From: Schmidtea nova
Taxonomy: Eukaryota
Reading direction: 5' to 3'
DNA: 64,000 nucleotides
Assembly (NCBI GenBank): GCA_044892505.1
Contig: CM097882.1
Location: 407,278,001-407,342,000 of the forward strand
The position numbers and the translations under genes are program-made. The notes below the pieces were generated by a model, which was given only the letters and a program-made list of their open reading frames with translations, did not search any database and was not told the DNA's origin. Shown piece after piece: positions 21,701 to 62,250 of the stretch. Within the stretch, counting starts at the first letter, position 1, and every line of letters begins with the position of its first letter.

Positions 21701-22082
21701 TCAAACTAACATGCGCAGACAAACGCTGATCAATTGGTGGTAGCGCACACAGACGCTATAAACTGAAAAAGGCAGAAAGCCAAAGTTTGCTACACGCAAA
21801 CTTTGGCTGAAANNNNNNNNNNNNNNNNNNNNNNNNNNNNNNNNNNNNNNNNNNNNNNNNNNNNNNNNNNNNNNNNNNNNNNNNNNNNNNNNNNNNNNNN
21901 NNNNNNNNNNNNNNNNNNNNNNNNNNNNNNNNNNNNNNNNNNNNNNNNNNNNNNNNNNNNNNNNNNNNNNNNNNNNTATTAGTGGTATATTAATAATATT
22001 GGTATAAAATAGTCTACAATTGTCTACAATGGTAATTGTAATAATGATAACGATAATAATATCCATGATATCTAATAATAAT

Positions 22083-23530
22083 AATAGTAGATGTGTGTAC
22101 TGAATAACAAGAGGAAATACGTAATCAATGAGTAGAATGAGTAATCAATGATAGTAGAACAAGCTACCATATTTTTTTACATATTTGACGCGTATTTTTG
22201 TTCTTTTTTGTGTTATTAACGACATTATAATATTTTTATTACGCACTATTAAAAATTTTTAAGGTCAAAAGTCACGGCAAAATCTTATGAAAATTTAAAA
22301 AAAACTTTTAAAAAGTTCAAAAGTCAAAACGAATATTATCAACATTTACTTAAAAACCACAAATAATAATCAATTCTAATACTGCTGATTTTTCAAATTG
22401 GAGATACTTTCTTTTGGATTAATATATCAATAAACCAATTTTCATTATCCATAGATTCAACAGATTGAAATCCTTCATGAAAATAAGTGTTGTTGATAAA
22501 TAATGTTTCATTGCACGATAAATTCTTGTTGATTTTGATCAACATTTTTTTTATTTCAACAACATCTTCTTTATAAAGCTGACCAATTAAGTTAGAATAT
22601 TGTGAATTTTACAACTTTACTGCATATGAGAAGATAAATGGTCTCTTTGAAATGTATCCTGAATCAAGACTCTGCTGGTTTAACAAAATGATGCACAACA
22701 AGTAAGAACAATTCCTTCATTACCCCGCCTTCACATATAGAATTCCATGGGATTGATAATCATGAACTTTTGAATTGGTCTGAAATAATTTTAGATTTTA
22801 ACTGTTTTGGTTTTTGTTCATGATTTGAACTGGTTTCGTTTTTACTGAATCTCCACTTTTTATCGGACTATTTTCCTTGAATACATAAGAAAATGTTCCA
22901 AAATCAGATTTCTTCGATTTCAAAAGAATTAAAATTAAATTAAAAATTATGATTATGACTAATTATGTCTTTACATTTTTATTCATCATTTATTTGTATT
23001 CAACCTATCATATTGTATATGCATTGCACATGCATTGTACATGTATTGCACATGCATTGCACATGTATTGCACATGGTATGTATGAAATTTCATGACCTG
23101 TGTGTTTACATGACAAATTATTTGCATCTTTATTGTACCTTTAATACAAGTCAACCTTTTTAATAGAAATTAATTTAAAAATTATGATTAAACAAGCATA
23201 AAAATCAATTCTTAAACAAATTCTTTTATAAAATATTCTATCAAGTTATTTATTAAAAACAATTCTTTAAAAAAGATACAAGTCCTAAACAATAAACACA
23301 TACTAAACTAAAATAAAAATTATTAAACTTTTAAATAAAGACATACTAAACTCTATAAAATAAAAACTAATTTTCAACTTTTAAACAAAGACATACTGTA
23401 AAAATAATACAAAATATAAAACAAATTTTTTATCTTTTTAAAAAGATTTTGGATCGGCGCATCCAGCTCCTATTGCTTTCTTTATTTTCAGCTTGTTGTA
23501 CCATCGTACAAATAACATCTGTTGAGAAAT
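22083..23530. mobile_element. Decayed Polinton left-end fragment
   Basis: Terminus-like aatagtagatgtgtg (compare agtaggtagatgtgtg). Minus-strand homologue of ORF 51555-51971 at about 22370-22640 (KINKNLSCNETLFINN..FHEGFQSVESMD.ENWFI). catgcattgca repeats as in Polinton B. Confidence 0.7.
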
Positions 23531-24540: not shown

Positions 24541-24544
24541 TAAA

Positions 24545-28199: not shown

Positions 28200-29005
28200 T
28201 TCATATCAAATATCAAAAATGCAAAATCTTTTCAGCAAATCGACTCCAATCAAAAATTAAGTTAAAATGAAACCAGTTAAGAACGAAACCAAACCAATTC
28301 AAACAAAATATGATTTACGATCTGTTTCGATGTTTCACAATTATAAATTGTTTTTCCTGGTAATTGAAATCCCATTCAAGTTTTCGTATTCGGTAAAGCT
28401 ACCGACTTCACAATATTCAAATTTAATTGGTCAGCTTTATAAAGAAGATATTGTTGCAATCAGTAAAGTGTTGATAAAAATCAACAAGAAATTATCTTGC
28501 AATGAAACTATATTTATCAATAACAGGAAAACTTACTTTCATGACTCATTCCAATCCGTTGAATTTATGGACTATAAAAATTGGTTTATTTAAATATCGA
28601 TTCAAGGCTATAAAGTAGATCCAAAAGAAGCAGTTTCTCCGATTTGGAAAATCAACAGTACTAGAATCGCTTAATGTATTTTTTAATAAATGTTGATAAT
28701 CAATTCTTGAGTTTTTGAATTTGTTTGTTTTTTAAGTTTTACGAAAAGGTTTTTGAAAAAATTTAAGTTTTTTAAATTTGAAAATTTGACCTTAAAAATT
28801 CCGACTTTGACCTTGAAATGACCTTGACCTCGTAGTTTGTCCTTAAAATGAAAAATAAATTCTATGACTCATCGTGTTTGTGAAAAAAATTACGGGGGTT
28901 TCTCAAAAAAAATAGGGCCTTCCCGGGTCTGCAGCGGTTTTTGATTGACTGTATATACGATATGACGTCATTTTATTTGTTGTGGAATTCACACTTCCTC
29001 CTACT
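28200..29005. mobile_element. Polinton terminal fragment in inverted orientation
   Basis: Ends ACACTTCCTCCTACT (29005); compare ACACTTCTACCTACT at 43927. TGACCTT repeats and TGACTCA/TGACGTCA motifs present. Carries a homologue of ORF 51555-51971 pointing toward the terminus, as in Polinton B. Confidence 0.8.
28267..28674 (+). pseudogene. Conserved Polinton terminal-proximal hypothetical protein (internal stop)
   Basis: Clear similarity to ORF 51555-51971 (EIP..FS..VKL..S.Y..L...KEDI...CNET.FINNRKT.FHD.FQ..EFMD...WF...IQGYK.D....SPIW). Confidence 0.75.
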
Positions 29006-36029: not shown

Positions 36030-36407
36030 ATGGAGTAAGATTTTTAATTGAATAATTATTTATTTTTAATTTGTTCTATTCAGGTATTACAACAAGGTAA
36101 AAAACTATTGGGAAACCAATTTATTGGAGTTTTTCCGTTCGATAAAATACCTTATTTGAAAATGAATCAAGCCATCATTGTAAATACTCACACTTCTACT
36201 TTGGGCGGTGAACATTGGATTGCTGTTTACGCGAAACCGGATCGAATACATGTATTTGATCCCTTTGGATATTATTATCCAAATTTACTTGTTCGAAAAT
36301 TGCAAACTATTGGTAAACCTATTGTGTATAATAGAATTCGGTATCAACATCCATTAACAATCACTTGGGGACAACATTGCCTTTTATGGCTAAAATCAAT
36401 GTTATAA
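36030..36407 (+). pseudogene. Adenain-type cysteine protease, catalytic Cys replaced by Trp
   Basis: IIVNT...GGEHWIAVY...FDPFG...YQHPLTITWGQHCL, where CGQHC is expected. Probable short intron at 36035-36083. Confidence 0.88.
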
Positions 36408-36438
36408 ACAATTTAGTTAAATAAATTTTATTGTAAAA

Positions 36439-36840
36439 ATGACTTGTTATTTTATTGATATTTATGGATATTATGAAATGGGTGGAACAACAATTAAGGA
36501 ATTATGTATTATGAATGTAAATAGTATTTTCACACCTCAGTATTATATATACAGTGATTTATCTTTCTGGCCTGATCGTTTAGAATGGTTTTAAGGACAA
36601 GATTATTTTTGCCCAAAATGTATTATGGATGATATTATAGATAAAGGAGCTATTTTCTATGTTACAGATAATGAAAAGTTGCAAGTTTTGAAGAAGTATT
36701 TCCCGAAATTAAGATTAATTAAATATAATTATAAAGAAGTTGAATATGTTCCAGAAAACATCTCATGTCCCTATAAAGATCATTGTATGTGTGCCTATAA
36801 AGGGTGCTTGTCTGGTGTTGTAGATTATTTGAAACAATAA
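36439..36840 (+). pseudogene. Small Polinton gene, possible DEDD-exonuclease-like N-terminus
   Basis: MTCYFIDIYGYYEMGGTTIKELCI continues in frame through one stop into ORF 36625-36840 (C..KDH..CA). Confidence 0.45.
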
Positions 36841-37452
36841 ATGTATTATTTTATGTTTCGGGTTTTATTATTATTAATATTATTAATATTTTTATTAACT
36901 TGCAGAATTAACATCCAATTTGCAGATTAACATCCATCTAGCTATATCTTTCGATAATCATAAAGAAATTGCATGCAGACACGCTTGCAGACATTCAATT
37001 ATTTCACATATAATTTTATTTGGGTGTATTCACATCTGCGTCCACACCCATAAGATATTATATATACACATTAGTCACGTAGTGTCTTTGTAACATTGCA
37101 TCGAACATGCATCGTGCAATATAACAAAGACATGACTCATACTTGGTGAGTGAATTGTTAACACACATACTTGGTGAGTGATTTTTAACACACATACTCA
37201 GTGCATGATCAGTGCGTGATAAACACATGTGATATCATGTCTTTGTCGCGATACAAAGCAAGTATCGTGACGTCAAACACATAAACAAAGGTGCATATGC
37301 AGTATGTATGTATGTATTTCTCTATCCTATCTCGATTCTGTTTGGTCGGTTAATAAAAGTCAGCTTTATATAGTATATACTTGCATTATTTCATCACTTT
37401 TTACTTACAAAATTTATATTGAAGTTTTAAAAATCACTTTATCAACTTAATA

Positions 37453-37810
37453 ATGAATAATATTAATTTAAATTCAACAAGAAGAATCATCGGAGGATTA
37501 AACAGTAAATTTATTATTTTTTAATTGATTATTATTATTTGCTTTTTTATAGACGTTAATTTATCAAATAATATTGCAGGATCTTCGTCAAACGGATTAT
37601 TAAATCAAAATAGAATTATTGGTAAAATTAATAATTCTTTATTTTTTCTTAATAAAAATTTTGTTTTTAGAAAATAATAATATGAATGCCGGTTATACCG
37701 AAAATAATCAAAATGCGATGAATTTCAATGCCCTGAATGTGACGTCTTTCGATGTCTCAAATATGACGACTTTTGATGTCCGATGCAGAGTTTTAATAAC
37801 TCTAGAAAAT
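37453..37810 (+). CDS. Spliced small Asn-rich Polinton gene (at least 3 exons)
   Basis: ATG 37453. Introns 37505-37552 (48 nt) and 37622-37670 (49 nt) are both GT-AG and keep the frame open. TATA-like motif at about 37365. Confidence 0.6.
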
Positions 37811-38106
37811 GTAATTTTTGTTTATTTTTATATGATGAACATATTTTTTAAATATTTTTTATGTTTTATAAATTAATGATCATATTTTTATGAATAAAAT
37901 ATTGTTTTTTAATAAATGATGATAATTTATGAAGAAAATTATGATGATCAAATTATGATATTTTATGAAGATGAAAATTATAAAGAAAATTATGATGATG
38001 AAAAATTATGATATTTTATGAAGAAAATTATAATGATGAAAATTATGTATAACAAGAAATCTTTATTATTTTGAAAAAGATGACAATAATGATAAAAATT
38101 ATGAAT

Positions 38107-38340
38107 AATGAAACCTTTTTTATTTTGAAAATGATGATATTTTATTACTTAATGAAACCTTTATTATTTTGAAAATGATGATATTTTATTACTTAATGAA
38201 ACCTTTATTATTTTGAAAATGATGATATTTTATTACTTAATGAAACCTTTATTATTTTGAAAATGATGATATTTTATTATTTTGAAAATGATGATATTTT
38301 ATTACTTTTTTAAACCTTTATTATTTTGAAAATGATGACA
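38107..38340. repeat. 44-bp tandem repeat, about 5 copies
   Basis: Unit aatgaaacctttattattttgaaaatgatgatattttattactt. Confidence 0.85.
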
Positions 38341-39269
38341 ATAAAAAATAATGATAAAAATAATGATATTTTATGACCATAAAAAAATAATGATGAAAAT
38401 TATAATATTTTTATACTGAAAAAATTGTTTGCTATTATTAATATGATTTTTATGATAAATATACCTTTAACATATTAAGTAATATATTTCAATTACTTAA
38501 TATGCTAAATGTTAAAATAATAATAAATATGATAATCTTTAATATAATATGTAATATTTTTATAACTATAACAAATTAAGTTAAAGAAAAAACATTTTTA
38601 ATTATTTTTAGCCATTTTATTTAAATTTTATTTAATATTCAGGTTTATTATATTTCAATTTTTGTAATAGTCGTTTCTATAATGATTGTCATATCATTAT
38701 GGAAAAATACTATTCATACAAATATAATGGTGTCACCCACCTACTATACCCAAAATGTAAAATTATAGAAACTACTTCTTATAACGAATTTTTTCACCAT
38801 CTTACCCAATATATGCCTTCTAAGAAATCTCTTTTTAATAGTTTATACCAAAACTATATCTCTAATAATAACTTTAATCCAAATAATAATCTTAACAATA
38901 ACAACAACCTTAATAATTCCAACAATAACAACTATCTTAATAATTCCAACAATAATAATAATTTACAAAATAATAATAATTACAACAATAACAACAATAT
39001 TAATAATTTACAAAATAATAAGAGAAAAAATACACATAATAGATTCAACTCCTAATTAAATAATAATAATCGACATCAGTGATGATGAAGATTTAAATAA
39101 TAATAATAATAATATTGATATTATAACCATCAGTGATGATTAAGATATTTATTATAATAATAGTAGTAATATTGATATTATATCCACCATTGATGATGAA
39201 GAAATAACCATCATCAATGATGATGAATTTTCAGATATAATTAATATTATAAATAATAATCAAATTGGC

Positions 39270-42200
39270 ATGGGGTTAGTCGAAGTCAATTCTGACTTGA
39301 ACGACAACCATGTCATAATTAAATTAGATGTAACAAATCTAGAATTAAAAACGGTCTCACTGCCGGACATTTTGTTAGAAAAATTAAATTTTTATGTAAA
39401 TAAATTAAAATCTTGTAAAATCCAATTTTGCCTTAAGGTGGAATTTGAGAAAGATGATGAGTTAAAATCTTTCGTCATCTCAAATTCCGCCAGAGTTTGA
39501 AGTGATACCTTCATTGACGAAGGTATCTCTAATTTAAATGAGAAGATAGTCCAAATTAATGAAAAAGGTAGTAATTGGACTATCAGTAAGATTGAGTACA
39601 TAAGTTTTGTGCTCACTAAATTTTCAGAAATAAGTCGGTTAAGTGGCAATAGTTTTATTGAAACACCTAGGTCATTAAAAAATTTAAGCTGTCTCATAAA
39701 TGTAAAAAATACTGATAATCTTTGTTTTGTATATAGTTTCTTATCTATTGTTAAGTATGATAGTGTCAATAGGCTATATAGAAATCGTCCCACTTCATAC
39801 GATCTTTCACAAATTAAATTTGACCCCAATGACATGCCGATGAAGCTGGCAAATATAAGTAAATTTGAACATCAAAATCCCGGCTATAGTATTAATGTTC
39901 TTAGTTATGATGAAAAGGCCTTGATTGACATTTCCGACGAAGATGCAGTTTTAAAGCATCCTTTTATTGACATAATTTACCGAAGTAAGGTAGTAGGAGA
40001 AATACCTATAAATTTATTATTAATCGAAAATAAAAAAACTTACCATTATGTGGCTATCACAGATTTAAATAGATTCCTTAATTGTAGAAATAGTTCAATA
40101 ACTCGTGTTAGGATTTGTAGCCAGTGGTGTCCTAGGTGTTTAAACGGTTTCAGGAATGATGAGTCTTTCAAGAAACATAGGGGTCTTTGTGATAGAAATC
40201 AGCTGGGTACTACCTTGTACACATTGCCCAAAAACAAATATCTAGAATTTAGTGATTGGAAGGAAACCGTGACTCATCCATTTGTTATTTACGTCGACTT
40301 TGAGGATATCTTACCTAAGGACACCCGTTACTTTCAACGCCACTTGCCTATTTCTGCCGGTTTGCTTTTAATTAATAATTTTACCGGTGTAAAAATTTAT
40401 AAATCATTTTTCGGATTAGATTGCGTCGATCAATTTCTTAAAAAAATTGAGTTGATTAGTAAAAATATTGTGACGCCGTTTTATTATAAAAATTATCAAA
40501 AGAAAATGATAATTACTGGCCTTCAACAATTACAGTTTGAAAACAGCACAATTTGTTATTTGTGCAATAAACCTTTAGTTTGTCCAGTTAGGGACCATGA
40601 CCATTTTACCGGTCTATTTCTTGGCGCAGCTTGCAAAGCTTGCAATGTATCAAGGCAAATTAGACATACCCTTCCTGTCATCTTTCATAATTTAAAGGGT
40701 TATGATCTACACCACATCTTAAAATTTGGCCTTTCGAAATATCATTCCTGGAATATTAGTTGTGTTCCATTGACCAGCGAGAAATTCGTTAGTCTTTTTG
40801 CTAGGATTGACTCCTTAACAGTTAAATTCATAGACTCTTACCAATTTGTCAGCGAGTCTTTAAATAATGCTGTCAAAACTTTAACTTCTTTACCCTTGAC
40901 CGAATCAGAATTTCAGGGTACAATAATAACTCAAAGGGAATTTTTCGTTATGATACGGCTACTTCTTTAGAAGTTTTACAAAACACACATGAATTACCTT
41001 CTATCTGGAAAGACGTGAAACCAGATGAATATGAGACAGCTCAGAGAATTTGGCGTGAAACCTCATGTACATCGCTTTTGATTACATGATGGTTTATTTA
41101 AAACTCGATGTCTTCCTTTTAACTGATTATTTTCAGCAATTTAGAGCTAAATCTATTGCCCATAACCTACTAGAGCCACTAAATTTCTTGGGAATTCCGG
41201 GTATGTCTTGGAATTCCGCCTTATTAGCTTTAAAATCTCCAATTGAGCTCCTCACCGTTATGGAGATGTATAATTTTTTTGAGGGCGGTATCCGTGGCGG
41301 CTTAACCTTTGTAAAAACAGGCCCGAATACCGCATTGCTTTACATAGATATAAATAATTTATATGGTTGGGCTTTAAGTCAGCCTCTACCATGCAGTAAC
41401 TTTGAATGGGTCACAGATGACCAATTATTAAATGAAATTATTGCTGAATGTACATCGGTAGATCTAGATGCACTTCATTATGGTTACACCATAGAAGGGG
41501 ATTTGGAAATACCGGCATCGATTCACGACAAACTGGATGATCTTCCAGTTGCCGCTAAAAAGATGTGTGTACAGGGTTCGAAAGTAGAGAAGCTGCTGCT
41601 AACGCACTATCCAAAGAGGAACTATGTTCTTCATTGGAGGCTTCTGCAACAGTTTATTAAATTAGGTGTTAAAATAACTAAAACACACAGAGCAATAAAA
41701 TTCACAAAAGAAAAAATATTTGAAAATTATATAAATACAAATACGGCGTTACGAGCAGCGTCGTCAAATAAATTAGACAAAAATTTTTATAAATTACTTA
41801 ACAACAGTCTTTACGGCAAGACTGTTGAAAATATTAAAAAACGAATTAATTTGTGTTTGTGCAATTTGTCGCAGAAATTGTTGACTTACTGTTCCAAACC
41901 GTCTTGCCGAAAATCCACTAAGATCGACGATGACTTGATTTCTGTTTTGTTAAGGAAGGAATCAGTGTGTTTGGATAGACCTAGTTACAATTGTCAAACA
42001 GTACTAGATTTATCCAAACTTAGGATGTACCAGCTGCAGTATGAAGAGTTGCAAAAATATCGTGACGACTTCAACTGCGAAATTAATATCGTTGCTGGGG
42101 ACACTGATTCCATCTTTTTGGAAATTAAAAATCTTTCTTTAGACTTACTCTTACCGGCTATGATTAGGGACAAACTTCTGGACACTTCGAATTATGACCC

Positions 42201-42552
42201 AAATCATCCTTTATACAGTAGGAACCATGATTCTGTCATTGGAAAATTCAAAGACGAGAATAAAGGGCTACTGTATGAAGAGTGGGTGTTCTTAAGACCA
42301 AAGTGCTATAGTTTAATGGGTGATGAGGCTTGTATGAAAGCCAAGGGGATTTGCACGAAAGATGCTGGACTAACACATCAGTCGTATCTTGATTGCTATA
42401 TAAATAATAAAATATATACAGTCCCCCAGTTCAGAATAACTAGTAAGAACCACCAGTTATTTACTATTAAAAATAATAAAAGGGCTTTGACTTGTAAGGA
42501 CGACAAGAGTAATTGGATAGATAAAAATAAGTTTGGCATATGGCCATTATAG
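39270..42552 (+). pseudogene. Protein-primed family B DNA polymerase (pPolB), disrupted
   Basis: Exonuclease motifs YVDFED, FHNLKGYD and YLKLDV. EndoVII/HNH-like RDHDHFTG...AAC..CN. Polymerase motifs YIDINNLYG, KLLNNSLYGK and GDTDS. Stop at about 39500 and frameshifts at about 40940-41065. An Asn-rich extension probably starts near 38699. Confidence 0.95.
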
Positions 42553-43759: not shown

Positions 43760-43927
43760 GAATTTGAAATGAGTCATCGATGACGTCATAAAATTCAAAT
43801 TTGAAATGAGTCATCGATGACGATATCGACGAGTCATAAAAAAATTTCTACCCACCCGGGGGTTCTTTGTTATGAGTCATTGATGAGTCATAATGTCTTT
43901 GTTTCCGGCTCCACACTTCTACCTACT
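43760..43927 (-). repeat. Right terminal inverted repeat of Polinton A with AP-1/CRE motifs
   Basis: Reverse complement reads AGTAGGTAGAAGTGTGGAGCCGGAAACAAAGACATTATGACTCA, nearly identical to the sequence from 50129. Confidence 0.9.
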
Positions 43928-49295: not shown

Positions 49296-49388
49296 CGTCT
49301 TCCTTAGTTTTGGACTTACTCTTCCGTTTAATTGCCTTTGCGGTGAATCATTTTCCGGTTTCTTTCTTTTCTTTATTATCGATAAATT

Positions 49389-49796
49389 TAATGCTTTCCA
49401 CCCTCCACGCTCTCTCAGCCAATTAATTAAAGACTCATTTATTAGTCGAGCCGCAATGTCAATTAAATTATCAAGCTTGTCTGACTTTGTAAATGCATGA
49501 ATACCGATCTCTTAAACAACGTAGGTTAGAATTAGTAGCACTACTTCTTTATCAATCCCATTTTCGATCAACTTTTCTATTACTTCACATTTACAAAAGC
49601 TATCCTCTTTGCCAAATTTCCGCACTACTTCTGGAAGTCTGATTTTCACTTCCTCTACTATTCCTTTCAATTCCTCTTCCGTTTCAGTCTCTATTTTTAG
49701 AATTGGGTATACGACTTTAACCAAATTTCTTATTACGTCACTTGTTTCGTCAACTTCCTGCTTTAATTTTATTAAGGTTTTCTTCATCTCATACAA
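49389..49796 (-). pseudogene. Bcl-2-like domain in frame with the glycoprotein
   Basis: ORF 49796-49512 continues in frame past one TAA into EIGIHAF...LDNLIDIAARLINESLINWLRERGGWKAL (BH2-like). It is preceded by EVIEKLIENGIDKEVVLLIL (degenerate BH1-like). Confidence 0.62.
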
Positions 49797-50164
49797 TGTT
49801 CTAGACTTCGCATTCGCACTTTTTATTTTTCTTTTTTCGATATTCGTATCTTCAATAACTGTCTTTCTGCTGTCTGAGCATTATTATTAACCCCCTTTTC
49901 ACCATCATAACCATCAGTAACTATTTCAATTTCGCTTTCCTTTATTTCTTCTGTATCTGAAAATTTGACTTTGTCAAGCATCCTCGAATTATATTCTTTA
50001 TTTGCGATTATGCGATTTATTAAATACCCCTGACTTCCATTAGTACTTAAATACCCATATTCATCCAGTTCCTGTGACACACATCCGCAGTCATATAAAT
50101 ATTCATCGTCATCCAATTCTTCATCTTTAGTAGGTAGATGTGTGGAGCCGGGAACAAAGACATT

Positions 50165-50515
50165 ATGACTCATGCGTGGGCGGAAAAAAAAGAACAAAGA
50201 CCCCCCGGGGGGGGTAGCAAAAAATTTTTTTGATGAGTCATCGATGAGTCACCGATGAGTCATCGATGAGTCATACTTTTTTTGATGAGTCATCGATGAG
50301 TCATCGATGAGTCATAATTTTTTTTTGATGAGTCATCGATGAGTCATAATTTTTTTTTTTCAAAAATTTTTTTTCGCGCCAAATTTTTTTTTCAAAAATT
50401 TTTTTCGCGCCAAATTTTTTTTTCAAAAATTTTTTTCGTGCCAATTTTTTTTTTTCAAAAATTTTTTTCGCGCCAATTTTTTTTTTTTTCAAAAATTTTT
50501 TTTTTCAGGCCAAAT
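50165..50515. promoter_or_regulatory. AP-1 (TGAGTCA) array followed by E2F (TTTCGCGCCAAA) array in the Polinton B terminus
   Basis: Nine GATGAGTCA units at 50232-50349. Three TTTTCGCGCCAA plus two variants at 50371-50514. Function is inferred from motif identity only. Confidence 0.6.
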
Positions 50516-50914
50516 TTTTTAAGACAAATTATTTTTAGTCAAATTTTTTTTTTTCAAGACAAAATTCGAGTAAACAAAAATATTTACAGTAGGTGTGCAA
50601 ACTAAACAAAGACATTTTTTTATATGTGTGCATGTTTAATTAATTATTATTTGTCAAGTATGAAGCTTTTGCACTTCAAAACCATCACAGAAGAGGTTCT
50701 GCTTCCAGGGTTCTGATCGCAATGTTCTGCTTCCAGGGTTCTGATACTAAATGTTCTGCTACTAATTATTATTTAATTATTATTTTTTCAAACTAAACAA
50801 AGACTTTGCAACACGTGTGCAACATGAACAAAGACATTGCAATACACATGCAAACTAAACAAAGACACATGCAACACATGTGCAACATAAACAAAGACAT
50901 TAAAAAGACAAAAT

Positions 50915-51490
50915 TTATTTATAAATATATCGTTGTGTACGTGTACAAAATTTAGTTTCAAAATTATTTACATCTGAATTATTACTCGGAATATTATTCA
51001 TTGTAATATTATTCATCGGAATACTAGTATTTGTCGGAATATTATTCTTTGGAATATTTGAAATCTTCTCCAGCCGTATGGATGCCGATAACATCAGTAT
51101 AATTATTAATATAAATAAACTTATATAATGTAAAACAATTGCTGTTTTATCGTTTTCCACTGTTTGATTTTGATTTTGATATCTGACTTCATATTCTTTT
51201 TTAACAATAGTTTGATTTATACATTTTAATCGTTCAACTATTTTCATCATTATTTTGTTAATCATTTTTTCAATATCTTTATTTATCACATTATTTTTGG
51301 AAGGACATTGATTACATTGCAATTTTATTTGATTGCATTCAATGTTTGAGTAAAGACATATATCGTTATAACTCGCGCAAGTACTATCTTGTTTTCGAAA
51401 CGGATGGGATGATTGACAATCTTCCAAAGCTTGTTCTCCTTCAGTATTGTCAACACATAATAATAATAAAATAACTATAAATAATTTCAT
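50915..51490 (-). CDS. Type I membrane protein (signal peptide, Cys-rich ectodomain, TM)
   Basis: MKLFIVILLLLCVDNTEG signal peptide, several Cys, TM segment IVLHYISLFILIIILMLSA. Confidence 0.75.
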   Translation of the reverse strand: MKLFIVILLLLCVDNTEGEQALEDCQSSHPFRKQDSTCASYNDICLYSNIECNQIKLQCNQCPSKNNVINKDIEKMINKIMMKIVERLKCINQTIVKKEYEVRYQNQNQTVENDKTAIVLHYISLFILIIILMLSASIRLEKISNIPKNNIPTNTSIPMNNITMNNIPSNNSDVNNFETKFCTRTQRYIYK

Positions 51491-51554
51491 TTTAAAAACA
51501 AAAACTAATATAAAAACTAAATTTGTTCATACTAAAATATTTATTAAAAAACAA

Positions 51555-51971
51555 TTATGCGTATCTTGCATTGTCAACTCTCCAAATCGGAGTAACAACA
51601 TCTTTTTTATCAATCTTGTACCCTTGAATAATAACTGTAACGAACCAGTGTTCTTGATCCATGAAATCAATAGTCTGAAAAGCATCATGGAACCGAGTTT
51701 TTCTGTTATTGATGTACATTGTTTCTTTACAAGCCAAATTAACATTCATCTTTGAAAATAATCGATTTAATGCGATAATATCTTCCTTGGCAATAACTAC
51801 AGCAAGACTGTCATATAACGATTTTGTTAACTTTACCGGAAATGATAATCGATACGGTATTTCATTAACCAAAAAATAAAGTCGGCTGTCATAATACATC
51901 TGAACTGGTTTTACCTCAGTCTGATATATTTTTTCATCGCATATATCCAAATTTTGTTTTCGAGATTGCAT
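51555..51971 (-). CDS. Conserved Polinton hypothetical protein
   Basis: Intact ORF with diverged homologues at about 22370-22640 and 28267-28674. Confidence 0.8.
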   Translation of the reverse strand: MQSRKQNLDICDEKIYQTEVKPVQMYYDSRLYFLVNEIPYRLSFPVKLTKSLYDSLAVVIAKEDIIALNRLFSKMNVNLACKETMYINNRKTRFHDAFQTIDFMDQEHWFVTVIIQGYKIDKKDVVTPIWRVDNARYA

Positions 51972-53192: not shown

Positions 53193-53367
53193 AATTGTGA
53201 ATATAAACTATGTGAGATTGTTCATAGTATATATATCAAAGAAACACACATGATTTGAAACACACATGATGAACCAATCAGAATGAAGCATGCACAACAT
53301 GTCTTTATTCTATCGATACACACAGAGCCAATCAGAATCGTGCATTTCTAATGCATCGATATTGCAG

Positions 53368-53835
53368 TCATGAGTCACATGTTAGTATGAAATCAACAAA
53401 GGCTTTATCTTCTATAATTGATTTTATATCGTAAATAATATCATCAACTATAGTACTATAGTCTTTGTTTTTTAATCCTAATATGACTATTTTTCCGCTT
53501 GCAAATATATTTACACACATGGGATTATATTTGATATATCTCAAAGCTGGAAATAATTCTGGCTCGTAAACACATGGTATTAATTTCGATAATTCATTCA
53601 AATTACAAATAAATCCTAAATCCGCAGTTACAGTTATCGATTGTATCTTTAAATCATAAAACTCAACTTGTTCGTCACTAATAAATTCCCTGCATCCCAT
53701 TATTCTATATCTTCCTGATTTAAAGTATATTATTGGGTATTTTCCACTTCGATCTACAATTTGCTGGGGTTTTCCATTTGGAAATTTCATGTGCGATACA
53801 TCGGTCTTACCCTTGTAATTAATGTTTCTAATCAT
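53368..53835 (-). CDS. TATA-box-binding protein (TBP)-like
   Basis: IQSITVTADLG...NLNEL...YEPELFPAL...IFASGKIVILG is a TBP repeat. A degenerate first repeat reads IRNIN...YFKSGRYRIMG. Confidence 0.88.
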   Translation of the reverse strand: MIRNINYKGKTDVSHMKFPNGKPQQIVDRSGKYPIIYFKSGRYRIMGCREFISDEQVEFYDLKIQSITVTADLGFICNLNELSKLIPCVYEPELFPALRYIKYNPMCVNIFASGKIVILGLKNKDYSTIVDDIIYDIKSIIEDKAFVDFILTCDS

Positions 53836-53928: not shown

Positions 53929-54552
53929 ATGGAATTAAGAAATGATGCAGTGTTTCAAATTGTTGGTCCGAGCGGGAGTGGAAAAACTTTATTTGTTTGT
54001 AAATTATTGCAATCGAAATTATTCAAGTCGAAATTTAATAATATTTATTGGCATAGGGGTGCTGACGACGAAAGTGGAATGACACAAGATCAGTTTTGTA
54101 AAATAAAAATGACAATCATTAAAGGTTTCGATAAAAACTGGTCATCTAGATTAAAACATGGTGATGTGATTATCATTGACGACTTGTATCAAGAAGCAAA
54201 TAAAGAAAAGGATTTCAATAACTTATTTACGAAAATCAGTAGACATAAAGGTGTTACTGTTATTTTTATAACTCAGAATTTATTTCATCAGGGCGGTAGT
54301 CATCGTACTCGTAATTTAAATGTTCAATATCTTGTTGTTTTTAAAAATCCTAGAGATGCAACAGTTATTGATTTTCTGGCAAGACAAGCTTATCCTTCTA
54401 ATCGTAACTTTTTGATTGAAGCCTTTCAAGATGCTACAAAATCTCCTCATGGATATATTTTCCTTGATTTTACTCAACAATGCAGTGATGATTTAAGGGT
54501 TAGAACTGATATTTTTAACAGTGAAGGAGCCATGGTTTATAAACAAAGTTAA
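53929..54552 (+). CDS. A32/FtsK-like packaging ATPase
   Basis: Walker A GPSGSGKT, Walker B IIIDDL, SRH, FITQNLF, RT.NLN.QY.V.FKNPRD. Confidence 0.95.
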   Translation: MELRNDAVFQIVGPSGSGKTLFVCKLLQSKLFKSKFNNIYWHRGADDESGMTQDQFCKIKMTIIKGFDKNWSSRLKHGDVIIIDDLYQEANKEKDFNNLFTKISRHKGVTVIFITQNLFHQGGSHRTRNLNVQYLVVFKNPRDATVIDFLARQAYPSNRNFLIEAFQDATKSPHGYIFLDFTQQCSDDLRVRTDIFNSEGAMVYKQS

Positions 54553-54572
54553 TTCTGTTTGCAATCGTAATC

Positions 54573-55091
54573 ATGTTAATGAAATCTCGAGTAAAGTTTG
54601 AGCCATTGATAAAGGCTAGAACAAAGAAAGCTGGAAAGAAAACAAAGAAACTATTTACAAAGAAATCTATAAAGAAATCAAGAAAGAAATCCAAGAAAAT
54701 ACTTATGGATAATATTCCCAAAAATAATCAAATTAAATTGAAATCTAATGCTAAACAAACACATCATCGGAGTTTACCGTTTTTTAATGCATTACTTAAA
54801 GCCCCTTCCGTTAGAAGAATGGGTATTCTTCAATCGTTTCCTAGTTACGTCATCGATGATTTACTCTCTATTTTAATTAAAGTCGTGCGAGGTAAAATGA
54901 ATCTAACTCCATCTAATCGTCGTGTTTTGAACAAGCATAAAAAACCATTGTTGTCGCTAGTAAACTCAAAAAATAAAAAACTTATGCGCAAAGTAATATA
55001 TAAACAACAAGGTGGTTTTATCGCAGCATTGTTACCATTAGCATTATCTTTATTGGGAGGTGCTGGTTTATTGGGAAAAAGAAAGTCATAA
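54573..55091 (+). CDS. Basic Polinton core/membrane-lytic-like protein
   Basis: Lys-rich N-terminus. C-terminal QQGGF followed by amphipathic IAALLPLALSLLGG. Confidence 0.8.
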   Translation: MLMKSRVKFEPLIKARTKKAGKKTKKLFTKKSIKKSRKKSKKILMDNIPKNNQIKLKSNAKQTHHRSLPFFNALLKAPSVRRMGILQSFPSYVIDDLLSILIKVVRGKMNLTPSNRRVLNKHKKPLLSLVNSKNKKLMRKVIYKQQGGFIAALLPLALSLLGGAGLLGKRKS

Positions 55092-55094
55092 ACA

Positions 55095-55316
55095 ATGGGT
55101 CAATCATTACCTAATTTAAATTTAAATTTTAAATCTTCTTGTTGTAATGGAGAAGATCTGGACGAACCCAAAAGACGACGCCGGTTTCGGTGGAGTCGAA
55201 AAGCTAAGGAAAAAAGCACAGAAGTCGAAACAACAGACACAAAGTTGGTTATCGGGGCAACTTGCATACAGTCTAAACAAACCGATGCTGAAACGGTTTC
55301 CAACTCGAGCATATAA
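55095..55316 (+). CDS. Small overprinted ORF, possibly lipid-anchored
   Basis: MGQSL...SSCC...KRRRRFRW. Starts 4 nt after the upstream stop and overlaps the integrase in another frame. Confidence 0.45.
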   Translation: MGQSLPNLNLNFKSSCCNGEDLDEPKRRRRFRWSRKAKEKSTEVETTDTKLVIGATCIQSKQTDAETVSNSSI

Positions 55317-56192
55317 AACATATAGAATCAATGATTTGTGGCAAATGGACTTGATGGAAATGATTCCGTATTCCAAAATTAACAAGGGGTACAAGTATAT
55401 TTTAACATGTATTGATGTTTACAGTAGATTTGCTCGAGCAATTGGAGTCAAATCAAAATCTGCTAATGATATGGCAATTGCTATCAAGACAATGATGAAA
55501 AAGGATCGGCCAACTAATTTACAAACCGATTTGGGTAAATTTTAATTTAAATTTATAAATTTAATATTTTTTTAGGAAAGGAATTTTACAACAGTAAAGT
55601 CAAGGAAGTAATCAAGGGAATAAATCATTATTCGGTATTCTCACAATTCAAAGCCGCTCATGTCGAGAGATTTAATCGAACTTTGCGTGATCGATTGAAA
55701 AAATACTTTGTTTTTAAAGGCAATAAAACCTGGATTAATGTCTTACCTCAATTGATTCATAGTTATAATCATAGTGCTCATCGGGGTATAAATGGCAGGA
55801 AACCGGCAGAAGTAGTTGATACTGAAAATATTGTGAGTGAAGTGAAAGTAAAGAAACCAAAATATAAAGTTGATGATCATGTTCGAATTAGCAAGATTAG
55901 TACATCGCCATTCGTTAAAAATTTTGATAATAATTGGAGTGATGAGGTATATCAAATATCGAAAGTCAACACAGTGCAGAATCCTGTCATGTATACTATT
56001 CGTGACTCTGATAACAATATAATCAGTGGCAAATTCTACGAACAAGAATTACAAGTTATTCCTAAACCTACGATATTTAGAATTCAAAAGATTTTGAAGA
56101 CTAAAATGGTGGGTAAGGATAAACAATACTATGTTAAATGGCATGGATATAAAGAACCATCATGGATCTCGTCAAAAAATCTAGTAAAGTGA
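55147..56192 (+). CDS. Polinton retroviral-type integrase with C-terminal chromodomain, two exons (intron 55535-55575)
   Basis: LWQMDL, YILTCIDVYSRFA, TDLG/KEFY restored by splicing, HVERFNRTL, YYVKWHGY...SW. Spliced length 334 aa. Confidence 0.93.
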
Positions 56193-57205
56193 ATTTTTAC
56201 ACTATTTTACCGAGCAATAGTTGTCCGAATATCCATCCGGATAATACTGCAAGTAAATTCATGGTGAATTTACCTAATCCAATTTATTTAAACGGAAATT
56301 GGGAAGTTGCTCTAATGGATTTTACATTTGTTTACCAACCTTTTCCATTTTATAGTCAATGTCAAAATTATTACACACAAAAGGAAAAAACTGTTGCAAA
56401 TGCGTTTTTCTCGATATATAATAATAGTGGCCATCTGAATGTTCCAAATCACACAATTGATCCAGATATCGAATTGTGGCAACGAGGTGGAAAAATAATT
56501 CTCACGTGTAATATTGTTCCGTATACAATTACATTTAACGATCTTGATGTAGCAAAACGAATGGGAAGTAATAAACTGACAATAACATGTAATGAAGAAG
56601 AATGTTCATTTCCAGTTTCGAAAAACTTGGCCAGTAACGAAGAAGAAATAATAACTTTTAATGTATCGTATTATCGTGATGTAGAGCATGTATTCACATT
56701 CAAGGAGGATTTGTATATAACGCATCTAGATGAATTACAGAAATATATTAGCGATAATTGTTCGTATATTTTTACAGTTGTCGAATTAAATAAATTGTTC
56801 AAATTCAAACTCAAAGATTTAATCACTAAAGTTCGATTTGATAAATACTTGGTGAATACATTGGGATTAGATAAGGATAAATTTACAGATAAAAATATCA
56901 TTTCTGGTGTTCGTCAACCGAAAATATCTAAACTTCATCAGCAATTATTCGTGTATACAAACATTATCGAACCCATTATTGTTGGTGATTCTTTGGTTCC
57001 TTTACTAAAATCGGTATGGATTGAAAAATACGATGCTGATGAAATTGTTCAAATAGTAATGGATAATCCAATGTATTTATCTGTTTCAACATCCTGTATA
57101 AACAATATAGAAATAAATATCCGGGATGACAGCGGAAGATTTATAAAATTTCCAAAAGATTCAAAAACTCACTTAACTCTACATTTTCGAAAAATCGATG
57201 AGTAA
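56162..57205 (+). CDS. Polinton minor capsid protein (penton)
   Basis: FYTILPSNS...NT.S.F.V.LP.PI.L.G.WEVAL; LFVYTNIIEP..VGD..VPLL; IEINIRDD.G..I.F; LHFR. Confidence 0.92.
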   Translation: MDLVKKSSKVNFYTILPSNSCPNIHPDNTASKFMVNLPNPIYLNGNWEVALMDFTFVYQPFPFYSQCQNYYTQKEKTVANAFFSIYNNSGHLNVPNHTIDPDIELWQRGGKIILTCNIVPYTITFNDLDVAKRMGSNKLTITCNEEECSFPVSKNLASNEEEIITFNVSYYRDVEHVFTFKEDLYITHLDELQKYISDNCSYIFTVVELNKLFKFKLKDLITKVRFDKYLVNTLGLDKDKFTDKNIISGVRQPKISKLHQQLFVYTNIIEPIIVGDSLVPLLKSVWIEKYDADEIVQIVMDNPMYLSVSTSCINNIEINIRDDSGRFIKFPKDSKTHLTLHFRKIDE

Positions 57206-57581
57206 TCCCGATATAGTTTCAATGTACAGTGATAGCCAAACTGGTGGCGAATTACCGTATTTTGTCGGTAAACAGTACGGATCAGGTTGGTTGAAAACTA
57301 TTGGGAGATTTGCACTTCCAATTCTTAGACGACTAGGTAATTTCGGAATGAATACTGCCAAGGACGTTATCATGAAAGATAATAAAATATTACCGTCATT
57401 GAAAACCAATGCTTTGGCCGCAGTTAATAAAGCTATACCTGCTGTAACACAAATGCTTCCTACAATTACAAGTATGTTTACAAAAAATAAGGAACCGGAA
57501 TCTGTACCGGTAGGACCAAGACGTAAACGAAAGCGTATAAACAAACGAATGAAAGGTCATGGAACTATATTTGAAGAATGA
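57198..57581 (+). CDS. Polinton basic core-like protein
   Basis: QTGG, QYGSG and KGHG adenain-type sites. Stop overlaps the capsid start (ATGA). Confidence 0.82.
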   Translation: MSNPDIVSMYSDSQTGGELPYFVGKQYGSGWLKTIGRFALPILRRLGNFGMNTAKDVIMKDNKILPSLKTNALAAVNKAIPAVTQMLPTITSMFTKNKEPESVPVGPRRKRKRINKRMKGHGTIFEE

Positions 57582-58541
57582 TTTGCGGTAAATCTGAATT
57601 ATGTCTTTATGATCGACCATCACCTCAAGCAGTTATTGAATATGGGGCGTTTGAAGATGTGTTTCCAATGAATTCAATTACAGATAGTAGAAATGATGTC
57701 GAATTTTACATTAATGGTTCTCAAACCGAATATTTGGATTTGAACGATACATTATTGTCCGTTACAATCAAAGTTGTTGATAAAGATAAAAAAGCTCTAG
57801 CCGATGCGAGTGATGTAGTTCCCAATAATTATTTGTTTCATACACTTTTCAAAGATGTAATTCTCGGATTTAATAATATAAAAATCGAGGGTGGAAACAA
57901 TACATATGCACACAAGGCAATAATCGAAACTATTTTAAATTATACGAATGATGCTAAAGAAACATGTCTTACTCCAATGGGATATGGTTCAGCTGACGAT
58001 CGGAAAAAATGGATCAAGGGATCTAAACTTTTCAACATGTGTTCGTCATTACAACTGGATTTTATGGATCAACCTAAATACTTACTTCCCGGAGTTAATG
58101 TACATATTAGATTGAAGCGATCTGATTCTGCATTATCATTGAAATCGGTAGCTGGGAAACCAGTTATCCAAATAGTTGATGCAAAATTAATGGTAAGAAG
58201 AGTTCGATGTGATTCTTCAGTATTGGCCGGTCATCAAATTGGATTAAATAAAAAACATGCAATTTATCCATTAAAATCAAAAGAAATCGTATCGTTTGCA
58301 ATCGGTAAAGGGGCATCGTCATTTTACAAGGAGCAGATATTTGGAGATAGACGAATGCCTAATTTCATTCTTGTGGCTTTTCAATCCGAAAATCAATATA
58401 ACGGATCTTATACCGAGTCAACATCTACATTCAAACATTTTAATGTGACTTCATTAACATTGTCGAAAAATACCGATTATCGTGAAACATATACCCAGGA
58501 TTTTGAAAATGATAATTTTAGTGCATCATATATGCAAAGTC
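57578..58541 (+). CDS. Polinton major capsid protein, truncated by insertion of copy C
   Basis: Closely similar to 34720-35680. Similarity stops exactly at ...ATGCAAAGTC (58541). Confidence 0.93.
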
Positions 58542-58650
58542 AGTAGGTAGATGTGTGGAGTCAAACACAAAGAAATGAGTCATAATGCGTGGGCGTAAAA
58601 ATTCAAACAAAGACTTTTTAGTTACCGAGCCCCCCCCCGGGGGGGGGGGG

Positions 58651-59300
58651 GGTTCGCGCCAAAATTTTTTTTCGCGCCAAAAATTTTTTTTTCAAATTTT
58701 TTTTTCGCGCCAAAAATTTTTTTTCAAATTTTTTTTTTCGCGCCAAAAATTTTTTTTTCAAATTTTTTTTTCGCGCCAAAAATTTTTTTCAAATTTTTTT
58801 TTCGCCCCAAAATTTTTTTTTTAAAATTTTTTTTGCTCCAAAATTTTTTTTAACACAAATTTTTTTAACCCAAATTTTTTTCACACATTTTTTTAACACA
58901 AATTTTTTTAACACAAATTTTTTTTTAACACATTTTTTACACACAAATTTTTTAACACAAATTTTTTTAACACATTTTTTTTTGACACAAATTTTTTTAA
59001 CACAAATTTTTTTTTAACACAAATTTTTTTAACAAATTTTTTTTTTAACAAATTTTTTTTTAACACAAATATGAGTCATCGAAAACTTTGCAACACGTGT
59101 GGAGTCAAACACAAAGAAATGCGTGGGCGTAAAAATTCAAACAAAGACTTTTTAGTTACCGAGCCCCCGGGGGGGGGGGGGGGGTTCGCGCCAAAATTGT
59201 TTTTTTTCAAATTTTTTTTTTCGCGCCAAAAATTTTTTTTTCAAATTTTTTTTTTCGCGCCAAAAATTTTTTTTTCAAATTTTTTTTTTCGCGCCAAAAA
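58651..59300. promoter_or_regulatory. Two arrays of E2F-type TTCGCGCCAAA sites
   Basis: Five copies plus one variant at 58651-58810 and four copies at 59185-59300, with about 30-35 bp spacing. Confidence 0.6.
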
Positions 59301-59989
59301 TTTTTTTTTTAAAATTTTTTTGCTCCAAAATTTTTTTTTTTCAAAATTTTTTTAACAAATTTTTTTAACACAAATTTTTTATTTTTTACAAAAATTTTTT
59401 AATTTAAGACAATTTTTTCTTTTTAGACAAATTTTTTCTTTTTACAAAAATTTTTTAATTAAGGACAAATTTTTTATTACACAAAATTAGAGTCATCAAA
59501 AATATTTGCAACAGGTGTGCAAACTAAACAAAGACATTGTTGTATGTGTGCATGTTGAATTAATTATTATTTGTCAAGTATGAAGCTTTTGCACATCAAA
59601 ACCATCACAGAAGAGGTTCTGCTTCCAGGGTTCTGATCGCAATGTTCTGCTTCCAGGGTTCTGATCGCAATGTTCTGCTACTAATATTGTTATTTATTCA
59701 TTTAATTATTATTATTATTATTATTATCTTTCAAACTATACAAAGACTTTGCAACACGCGTGCAAGTTAACAAAGACATTGCAACACACGTGCAAGGACT
59801 TTGCAACACGCGTGCTTTTGCACATCAAAACCATCACAGAAGAGGTTCTGCTTCCAGGGTTCTGATCGCAATGTTCTGCTTCCAGGGTCCTGATCGCAAT
59901 GTTCTGCTACTATTATTGTTATTTATTCATTTAATTATTATTATTATTATTATCTTTCAAACTATACAAAGACTTTGCAACACGCGTGC

Positions 59990-61756
59990 AAGTTAACAAA
60001 GACATTGCAACACACGTGCAAGGACTTTGCAACACGCGTGCAACATGAACAAAGACATTGATACACGCGTGCAACATGAACAAAGACATTGCAATACACA
60101 TGCAAACTAAACAAGGACAAAACTAAACAAAGACATTGCAAGTTAACAAGGACTTTGCAACACGCGTGCAACATGAACAAAGACTTTACAATACATATGC
60201 AAGTTAAACAAAGACATTTCAATGCCAAAAACTAAACAAAGACATTTCATTGCTTTATTTCATAACAAAGACATTTCAATGCCAAAAAACTAAACAAAGA
60301 CATTTCATTGCCAAAAAACTAAACAAAGACATTTCATTGTCAAAAGAAAAAAAAAACTAAACAAAGACATTTCATTGCCAAATTTCATAACAAAGACATT
60401 TCAATGCCAAGAAACTAAACAAAGACATTTCAATGCCAAATTTCATAACAAAGACATTTCAATGCCAAATTTCATAACAAAGACATTTCAATGCCAAAAA
60501 ACTAAACAAAGACATTTCAATGCCAAATTTCATAACAAAGACATTTCAATGCCAAAAAACTAAACAAAGACATTTCAATGCCAAATTTCATAACAAAGAC
60601 ATTTCAATGCCAAAAATCTAAACAAAGACATTTCAATGTCAAATTCCTTAACAAAGACATTTCATTGTCAAATTTCATAACAAAGACAATTCATTGCCAA
60701 AAAAAAAACAAAACAAAGACAATTTATTGCCAAAAAAAAAACTAAACAAAGACATATCAATACCAAAATACCTAAACAGAGACACGAACATTTACTAGCA
60801 GAACATTTACTATCAGAACATCTTTTGTGATGGTTTTTATCTGTCAAAGCTTATTACTCGAACATTTATTACAATTCAAAGATTATATATGTACTCTTAA
60901 ACATAGAATCTTTTCATAACAAAGACATATCATTGCCAAAACATCTAAACAAAGACATTTCAATACCAAAAACATCTTAACAAAGACATTTCAATGCCAA
61001 AATAACTAAACAAAGACATTGTAANNNNNNNNNNNNNNNNNNNNNNNNNNNNNNNNNNNNNNNNNNNNNNNNNNNNNNNNNNNNNNNNNNNNNNNNNNNN
61101 NNNNNNNNNNNNNNNNNNNNNNNNNNNNNNNNNNNNNNNNNNNNNNNNNNNNNNNNNNNNNNNNNNNNNNNNNNNNNNNNNNNNNNNNNNNNNNNNNNNN
61201 NNNNNNNNNNNNNNNNNNNNNNNNNNNNNNNNNNNNNNNNNNNNNNNNNNNNNAATACCAAAACACTNNNNNNNNNNNNNNNNNNNNNNNNNNNNNNNNN
61301 NNNNNNNNNNNNNNNNNNNNNNNNNNNNNNNNNNNNNNNNNNNNNNNNNNNNNNNNNNNNNNNNNNNNNNNNNNNNNNNNNNNNNNNNNNNNNNNNNNNN
61401 NNNNNNNNNATTGCAATACATATGCAAGTTAACAAAGACAAAGTAATGTAGATACTAGTTAACAAAGACATNNNNNNNNNNNNNNNNNNNNNNNNNNNNN
61501 NNNNNNNNNNNNNNNNNNNNNNNNNNNNNNNNNNNNNNNNNNNNNNNNNNNNNNNNNNNNNNNNNNNNNNNNNNNNNNNNNNNNNNNNNNNNNNNNNNNN
61601 NNNNNNNNNNNNNNNNNNNNNNNNNNNNNNNNNNNNNNNNNNNNNNNNNNNNNNNNGGATTCAAAACTTTTTTAAACAAAGACATTGTAATGCTAAAACA
61701 TCTTAACAAAGATATTGCAATACAGATACTGGTTAACAAAGACACACATGCAATTT

Positions 61757-61792
<36 letters not shown>

Positions 61793-62045
61793 CCCATTTT
61801 GACACTGCAATCCATGTGCAAACTAAACAAAGACTTTGCAATACACGTACAAGACTTTGCAATACACGTGCAACATGAACAAAGAAACAAAGACATTGCA
61901 ATATAGATGCAAGTTAACAAAGACATTGCAATGTGGATACAAGTTAACAAAGACATACATGCAAGTTAATAAAAAATATTCAAAAATATTAAAGGGTTCA
62001 AAAATTTTTTAAACTATATAAATAGCATGCGAAAGATATTTGAGA

Positions 62046-62078
<33 letters not shown>

Positions 62079-62250
62079 TTTCAAACCTTCAAGATGTCAA
62101 AATAAAATAATTAAACTACCACAACGTAATATAGTTTAATTTTCCTACCCATTTTGACGCTGCAATTCATGTGCAATATTAACAAAGACATTGCAAAACA
62201 GATGCAAGTTAACAAAGACATTGCAGTTGCAAGCCAAGTTAACAAAGACA
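59990..62250. repeat. AACAAAGACATT satellite-like array (about 28-30 bp units), with N runs
   Basis: Dozens of (ctaa/cata)ACAAAGACATTTCAATGCCAAA units. Confidence 0.9.

Follow-up and report, generated by a model that had tools for sequence, protein, structure and literature searches.

Terminal arrays of putative host transcription factor sites in a group of Polinton elements

The Polinton/Maverick elements (adintoviruses, polintoviruses) are the closest described system to the DNA presented here. They share with it a type B DNA polymerase primed by a protein (pPolB), an rve integrase, an A32-like ATPase, an adenovirus-type protease and ends which start with AG (PMC8097293, PMC10748475). In the portions available, the Polinton literature covers only the 6-bp motifs of the ends and the length of the TIRs and makes no mention of host factor sites in them. 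Our literature search, which covered mainly open papers and included passages of PMC8097293, PMC10748475, PMC8502044, PMC9341512 and PMC11410931, did not find Polinton ends described as carrying sites for AP-1, EGR or E2F; the TIR alignments in the supplements of these papers could bear on this point.

AP-1 and E2F sites are already well known in DNA viruses and transposons, which limits the surprise of finding them in a Polinton. Adenovirus also has a linear, protein-primed genome, with a core origin followed by host sites at fixed distances: its ITRs carry NFI, Oct-1, Sp1 and ATF sites (PMC5717082) and an enhancer lies just inside the end (PMC12338741, PMC5033970). The hrs of baculoviruses have palindromic repeats with CRE/TRE and E-box sites; they are both enhancer and origin, and their enhancer strength tracks the number of CRE/TRE (PMC13513840). 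In polyomaviruses AP-1 and E2F sites are found beside the origin and entry into S phase boosts viral transcription and replication (10.1101/2025.11.15.688648, PMC12338741); the control region is activated by E2F1-3 (10.1101/2025.11.15.688648). Finally, one E2F variant has been amplified within MITEs of Brassicaceae. These sites have been proposed to aid replication-coupled transposition and not gene regulation (PMC7329337, a review; one supporting paper is listed as retracted).

The ends described below appear to work like adenovirus ITRs, baculovirus hrs, polyomavirus control regions and E2F-amplifying MITEs, and are members of none of these groups. They differ from adenovirus by having neither NFI nor Oct-1 consensus in a scan of 36 motifs and by the arrangement of their sites in tandem arrays; furthermore, the flanking Polinton genes face the ends, whereas those of adenovirus face away, and the A-repeat consensus is not enriched here. 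The hrs are scattered over a genome which is circular, and the protein bound to them is the viral IE1, whereas the Polinton arrays are terminal and contain EGR and E2F sites. Polyomaviruses have a circular genome and single sites near the start site, and their loop is closed by a protein with LxCxE; no such protein is confirmed in the Polintons studied here. The MITEs are non-autonomous plant elements, in contrast with an autonomous virus-like element which has AP-1 and EGR sites in addition.

The window, by which we mean the whole stretch of 64,000 nucleotides that was analysed, is transposon-rich DNA with 30% GC and seven N gaps. We have found five Polinton ends in it (A, B, C, D and E), which are listed in Table 1 with the features that surround them. 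Four tested features are present in the window: pPolB, the rve integrase, a packaging ATPase together with an adenovirus-type protease, and the AG-type end motif. By these features of their sequence the elements are Polintons. The protease of copy A matches Pfam Peptidase_C5 (E 1.2e-5) and its polymerase (41059-42552) matches DNA_pol_B_2, PF03175 (E 6.5e-16). In copy B the packaging ATPase matches Pox_A32 (E 6e-7); the integrase (55126-56192) is split across two ORFs, with rve (E 2.6e-8) and chromodomain (E 5e-5) matches. The polymerase end of copy B falls outside the window: its tie with A is the DNA identity given in Table 1. Their capsid-like genes are 91.6% identical. The putative capsid protein of B, a candidate for the double jelly-roll major capsid protein of Polintons, has no match in Pfam, PDB-sequence and PHROGs searches; it is labelled by its position and by 120 unnamed relatives of about 407 aa. 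Copy C is inserted in this gene, at 58541/58542.

Table 1. Positions of the Polinton ends, their arrays and the neighbouring features in the window
Feature	Position	Strand	Remarks
Probable end of diverged copy E	~22082..22270	+	looser bZIP-type palindrome at +36, AAGGTCA at +180
End of diverged copy D	28787..29005	-	end at 29005; CRE at +35 with AP-1 deeper inside, and three half-sites of nuclear-receptor type (AAGGTCA); EGR and E2F absent
Polinton copy A	33566-43927		89.7% DNA identity to B over 2 kb
Core genes of copy A	36048..42552	+	protease of adenovirus type and a broken pPolB, oriented towards right end of A
Internal non-coding module of A	37084..37300	.	AP-1, CRE, three ACAAAGAC: vocabulary as at the ends
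Right end of copy A	43769..43927	-	bZIP at +37, a further AP-1 site and an AP-1/CRE array; neither EGR nor E2F
Gypsy-type fragment	43991-49880	-	between A and B; RT-region and integrase remnants
Left terminus of copy B	50129..50147	+	AG-starting; presumed core origin and integrase attachment site
AACAAAGAC word	50153..50161	+	related word in corresponding slot of A, C, D, E
Origin-proximal AP-1 palindrome at +37	50165..50173	+	bZIP palindrome at +34 to +37 in all five ends
Perfect EGR/Zif268 consensus GCGTGGGCG at +46	50174..50182	+	likewise at +46 in C
C-run/G-run palindrome	50201..50214	.	in A, B, C (twice), D; absent from E
AP-1 array, nine GATGAGTCA units	50232..50347	.	T-tract spacers, 11-bp period inside blocks
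E2F-type array, five ~31-bp units	50348..50515	.	A/T-tract scaffold, one TTCAAA (CHR-like) word per unit
GTTCTG repeat block	50654..50764	.	other copies 52143-52218, 59574-59683, 59814-59913, 63121-63231
AACAAAGAC and E-box-like array	50794..50901	.	31-bp period; third array of B, overlooked in the sequence-only reading
First ORF of copy B	50915-51526	-	membrane-protein look by eye: hydrophobic leader, Cys-rich part, charged helix, hydrophobic stretch
OB-fold SSB-like protein (T7 gp2.5/Enc34 type)	51555..51971	-	second ORF from end of B, reads towards end
Acidic Cys-rich ORF	about 52524-53207	-	upstream region 53228-53378: two CCAAT boxes, TATCGATA word, TATA-like run
TBP-like protein, copy B	53368..53835	-	155 aa; Pfam TBP E 3.8e-14; Foldseek to TBP E 3e-9
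Core genes of copy B	53929..58541	+	ATPase (A32-like), chromodomain-bearing rve integrase and unnamed ORFs, with a putative major capsid protein cut short by C
End of copy C	58542..59490	+	bZIP +34, EGR +46, E2F array 58653-58840
Long AACAAAGAC array of C	59740..62250	.	period 29-31 bp; broken up by three N gaps
RING-finger ORF, first gene of C	62351-62866	-	zf-C3HC4_3 E 1.5e-7; possibly IAP-like

Copies A, B, C and D start with AGTAG. The first bases of E differ, so that its exact end is only approximate; the ORF beside it is homologous to the ORFs beside the ends of B and D, and both the D and E ends adjoin a homologue of the SSB-like ORF of B. The end motif is AGTAGG, compared with (AGT)2 or (AG)3 in vertebrates (PMC8097293). 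Every copy lacks at least one of its ends in the window: within this limit, the right end of A, when inverted, agrees with the left end of B in 74% of 179 columns, and the flanking 6-mers, where a target-site duplication would be sought, are mutually different in A, B, C and D. A Gypsy-type fragment lies between A and B; no LTRs were found in it (43991-49880). It carries a gene for a Monjiviricetes-type fusion glycoprotein upstream of its protease (Pfam E 1e-30, 5e-26). We rejected the arrays as termini of this Gypsy element, because it is with their AG termini that they face it and because it has no internal repeat itself.

Other remnants are scattered in the window. Two of them are also Polinton pieces, the start of a capsid-like gene in 1-90 (-) and an N-terminal polymerase fragment in 24543-25030 (-). 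Region 24422-24545 has repeated TTTCCCGGGAAA palindromes and an AGTAG start: it is probably the end of another element. There is also a Tc5/pogo-type transposase remnant in 13803-14426 (-), a second Gypsy pol remnant in 26063-28071 (-) and, judged by eye, gag/protease-like pieces of an LTR-retroelement in 9859-11318 (-). A decayed intronless pseudogene of elongation factor 2, of animal type, is found in 11186-12010 (+); among solved structures its best match is Drosophila EF2 (E 3e-25), followed by other animal entries (3e-23), and a homologue search gave 11 matches, none of them a close relative with a name. This places the host among the invertebrate animals; a composition of about 70% AT and the absence of CpG loss would suit a planarian (PMC10558129), and other invertebrates equally. 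An Rfam search of the whole window gave no structured RNA.

The five ends are organized in the same way: a conserved terminus of about 16-19 nt, a bZIP palindrome at a fixed distance and a cassette which varies among subfamilies. Inward from the terminus all of them have GTGTG ending at +16, a word containing ACAA and the bZIP-type palindrome, which starts at +37 in A and B, +34 in C, +35 in D and +36 in E. It has the AP-1 form in A, B and C, the CRE form in D and the form ATACGTAAT in E. The strict consensus, TGA(C/G)TCA or TGACGTCA, is present in four of the five ends; that of E is loose and its pattern was chosen after viewing the site. In gapped pairwise alignments the first 60 nt are 60-80% alike. 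Since the five ends are homologous, they do not represent five independent origins.

It is known that bZIP dimers tolerate C, G or CG in the centre of their site. The AP-1 and CRE forms differ in this centre alone: in the window, with 70% AT, we have found 18 C/G-centred and two CG-centred palindromes and none centred in A/T. There are six clusters of ATGASTCAT in 28 kb of Polinton DNA and none in the remaining 36 kb, while each of the other 63 among 64 composition-matched pseudo-palindromes has at most two; in this test the Polinton boundaries were drawn after seeing the motifs, two clusters share one copy and one includes a coding site. With a fixed position in all five ends and variation in the centre alone, the AP-1/CRE sites look selected, and we judge it very probable that the selection is for binding.

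In copy B the region of arrays starts 36 nt inside the end at 50129. The first 19 nt of B are identical in C; A has one mismatch over the first 18 and D has four mismatches. The AACAAAGAC word which follows is presumably SOX/TCF-like. The C-run/G-run palindrome (50201-50214, 43855-43862, 58630-58652, 59164-59184 and 28922-28927) has low complexity; it lies 66-89 nt from the end in four of the five ends and resembles what we take to be a Zic-type motif. The AP-1 array is organized in blocks of 4+3+2 units, which start at 50232, 50243, 50254, 50265, 50284, 50295, 50306, 50327 and 50338; a tenth AP-1 site, at 50165, is outside this array. The E2F array has 70% of its bases in A or T runs of at least 5 nt. 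Three of its five units are intact and two are degenerate: the 12-mer TTTCGCGCCAAA is exact twice (50372 and 50403) and its 11-mer is found three times. None of 1000 dinucleotide shuffles of 50165-50515 reached the AP-1 count of 10 or the TTCGCGCC count of three, a result which shows a repeat and not a function, because any tandem unit would pass it.

The EGR 9-mer GCGTGGGCG, overlooked in the sequence-only reading, was detected by the 36-motif scan in three exact copies. Two of them lie at +46, one in B and one in C, and the third belongs to an internal duplicate in C, so that the 9-mer is present in two of the five ends. An order-2 model predicts 0.013 copies per window, and no copy with one mismatch is found elsewhere. 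We take this sequence to be the EGR/Zif268 consensus. It is preserved between B and C, while the adjacent spacers diverge; the two sites count as one event, because B and C probably inherited it once. Selection for binding is in our judgement probable in this case. The proximity of EGR and AP-1 in B and C adds to a reading in terms of injury, immediate-early response or mitogens. EGR reportedly is a wound-response regulator in acoels and planarians, as Gehrke is said to have found in 2019. In a planarian, the accessibility of EGR motifs has been reported in epidermis and brain (PMC10558129).

E2F arrays are found in two of the five ends (B and C) and are absent from A, D and E. The 12-mer is observed nine times, with an expectation of 0.006. 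TTTSSCGC sites are 21 in Polinton DNA and three elsewhere; counted as clusters they are three in each. Copy C has nine TTCGCGCC units in 58651-59300, seven of them with the full 12-mer, and its A/T scaffold runs on for about 200 bp with cores which are not of E2F type. The cores are intact in 12 of 17 units and the spacers vary almost only in the length of homopolymer runs; the comparison involves few, recently amplified units, and the run lengths may include assembly errors. A better conservation of the E2F cores than of their spacers, the criterion set by the sequence-only reading, is thus not apparent in these units. We consider selection for binding at these sites as rather probable. On the same strand as the intact cores, TTTGAA appears at 9-10 nt from nine of the 12, and this distance is held in spite of the different scaffold of the two copies (A5T7-8 in B, A3T9-10 in C). 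In a canonical CDE/CHR the E2F-type site is located 4 nt upstream of TTYRAA. We rejected this assignment: the spacing is 9-10 nt and there are no matches at 2-8 nt.

The ends have different cassettes: B has EGR, an AP-1 array and an E2F array, C has EGR and an E2F array, A has an AP-1/CRE array, and A, D and E have nuclear-receptor-type half-sites. The latter lie at +180 to +213, where B and C have E2F units; that of A is a one-base variant. The whole end module of C is duplicated at about 59097-59490, and the duplicate has no bZIP site at +34. The AACAAAGAC/E-box-like array is present in A, B and C, with about 40 copies in C. AP-1, CRE and ACAAAGAC words are repeated in internal non-coding modules.

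The sequence-only reading had located its motifs correctly. A direct recount confirms the nine GATGAGTCA at 50232-50347 followed by E2F-type units, four AP-1 and one CRE at 43770-43890 in copy A, and the E2F-type units of copy C (nine in our count); the hallmark genes and AG-starting termini agree with its placement of the arrays at Polinton ends. Its general statement, that Polinton termini are built from AP-1 and E2F arrays, does not hold: E2F arrays are present in two of the five ends, multi-copy AP-1 in two and both in a single one, B. The CpG-containing motifs are there as described, but their retention is uninformative, because no part of the window is depleted in CpG (observed/expected 1.01 overall, 1.04 for 1-26000, 0.99 for the Gypsy-type fragment). 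Its mention of cycling stem cells is a guess which goes too far, and an enhancer is only one of the roles that the sites may have, beside those of an origin helper or a repressor site. The factor names used throughout come from a panel of 36 consensus motifs and may not be those of the host. NF-Y, DRE, GATA, FOX, NF-kB, STAT, HSE, p53 and most others of this panel show no clear Polinton excess.

The ORFs beside every end are oriented towards it, and the nearest divergent pair of genes starts 3.7-3.8 kb from the end of B; the arrays are therefore not a proximal promoter. The first ORF of B (50915-51526) has no match in Pfam or PHROGs. The second ORF models as an OB fold (pLDDT 92), similar to 4klk (VIA Z 7.5, rmsd 2.6, 98 aligned), to the Enc34 SSB (Z 7.0) and to T7 gp2.5 (Z 6.7), matches which are suggestive only because Z is under 8. 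It has homologues at 28261-28675 (+) and 22375-22641 (-) and 31 relatives, with no Pfam match. The model makes it a candidate for the binding of single-stranded DNA when Polintons replicate. An LxCxE word is present in this ORF in B, D and E. We did not retain it as an Rb-binding Oncoid of the kind known from small DNA tumour viruses: the word is in this place in none of the 31 relatives, and the model shows a folded OB domain. Among the ORFs of the window no Rb-binding protein came to light that could complete an E1A-like loop; the elements are incomplete and another ORF of this kind may therefore exist. The acidic Cys-rich ORF (52527-53102, within 52524-53207), tried as an E1A-like activator, has no match in Pfam, PHROGs or Atlas. 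The TBP-like protein gives 82 matches; about 64 of them are short, close relatives with 37-76% identity, so that it represents a family and not a one-off capture. An AP-1 site overlaps the last codons of its gene. TBP-like genes are mentioned for the related MELD viruses (PMC8502044).

The terminal region appears to be real, non-random and probably functional. With little more than even confidence, we interpret the Polinton end as a viral-type terminal control region which would be read by host transcription factors. Slippage during the protein-primed replication of the element may multiply or delete single sites, and selection on the replicating copies would retain those bound by host factors. 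Injury or mitogens would induce Jun/Fos/ATF and EGR, and these would open the end, which A/T tracts might hold poor in nucleosomes. E2F would restrict activity to cells entering S phase, a time at which the polymerase of the element finds nucleotides. Because the neighbouring genes read towards the ends, we propose that the region acts as an enhancer of internal promoters at a distance of 2-4 kb, as a helper of the adjacent origin or both.

Help to the origin could be the whole story: host factors bound at the end might aid the loading of the protein-primed polymerase with little effect on transcription. The fixed distance between bZIP site and end agrees with it, as do the loss of this site in the internal duplicate of C, the orientation of the flanking genes with no divergent pair closer than 3.7-3.8 kb, and the adenovirus precedent of NFI and Oct-1 at the origin (PMC5717082). 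However, similar motifs are present in internal modules far from the ends (37084-37300, 53228-53378), and arrays with variable copy number hundreds of bases inward are more enhancer-like. Taken as the whole explanation we find it unlikely, but it is compatible with a terminal control region. A different possibility is that the arrays are neutral minisatellites, in which slippage and hairpins amplify palindromic words near a replication end and any likeness to factor sites is a coincidence. They do vary widely among related copies, as in A and B, where despite the 91.6% identity of their capsid-like genes only B has E2F units; a whole end module is duplicated in C, single strands fold with z = -7.8 in B and -2.6 in C, and the E2F cores appear no better preserved than the spacers. 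This would leave unexplained the fixed bZIP position with only C, G or CG centres, the absence of A/T-centred versions in DNA with 70% AT and the single-copy EGR site, which is not palindromic. The idea is more plausible for the number of copies than for the identity of the sites, and as a general account its probability is low.

The CHR-like TTTGAA near the E2F cores gives some room to a repressive or gating reading, in which E2F and CHR-like words would recruit DREAM/Rb, so that the element is silent in non-cycling cells and released in S/G2. In worm, fly and human, DREAM binds to motifs which combine E2F and CHR and to periodic ones rich in T (PMC3093354, PMC5683655), and the distance from nine of the 12 intact cores is kept in spite of the different A/T runs. 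But substitutions preserve length without any selection, and TTTGAA is common, with a background of 2.3 per kb. The canonical 4-nt spacing is found in no unit. One of the ten core-TTTGAA matches of the window falls by chance in the integrase of the Gypsy element, near 44611. We hold this gate to be quite improbable. Even less probable is that the arrays are read by proteins of the element itself, as a signal for packaging or assembly. AT-rich repeats with periods of 2-3 helical turns lie just inside one end, in a manner reminiscent of adenovirus, where the packaging domain and the E1A enhancer overlap (PMC5033970). E2F arrays are found at left-type ends only and the AACAAAGAC array has no sure host factor. 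We rejected adenovirus-type A-repeats, as TTTG-N8-CG is not enriched at the ends: it is absent from those of A, B and D, with three in 2479 bp of C and 32 in the window. Besides the TBP-like ORF none was recognised as a sequence-specific DNA-binding protein, and three exact host consensus sites would have to be coincidental.

A terminal control region read by host factors can be developed into a more specific hypothesis, which we present as tentative and rather doubtful. AP-1 and EGR together with S-phase E2F would form an AND-gate which licenses replication in wounded, proliferating tissue; subfamilies would exchange the E2F/EGR cassette for the nuclear-receptor-type one to suit different cell states, and the virus-encoded TBP-like factor would serve later genes. 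In the planarian Schmidtea, Polintons are repressed by piRNA and acquire H3K4me3 and RNA when cells leave the stem-cell state and differentiate (PMC8532177), and planarian T-tracts mark stem-cell promoters (PMC10558129). If the host is a planarian, this literature cuts both ways for a reading in terms of stem cells.

The presence of putative host activator sites at the ends suggests that these elements may switch on when the cells of the host are stimulated to divide. According to a vertebrate survey, no virions of Polintons had been observed (PMC8097293). The activation of animal Polintons could now be approached through named host factors, which predict responses to injury, mitogens, S phase and the loss of Rb/DREAM or piRNA. 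If the AND-gate were true, it would be the first defined trigger for the reactivation of an animal Polinton, and regeneration might be a window for its spread. Thousands of such ends could also supply the host with injury-responsive enhancers.
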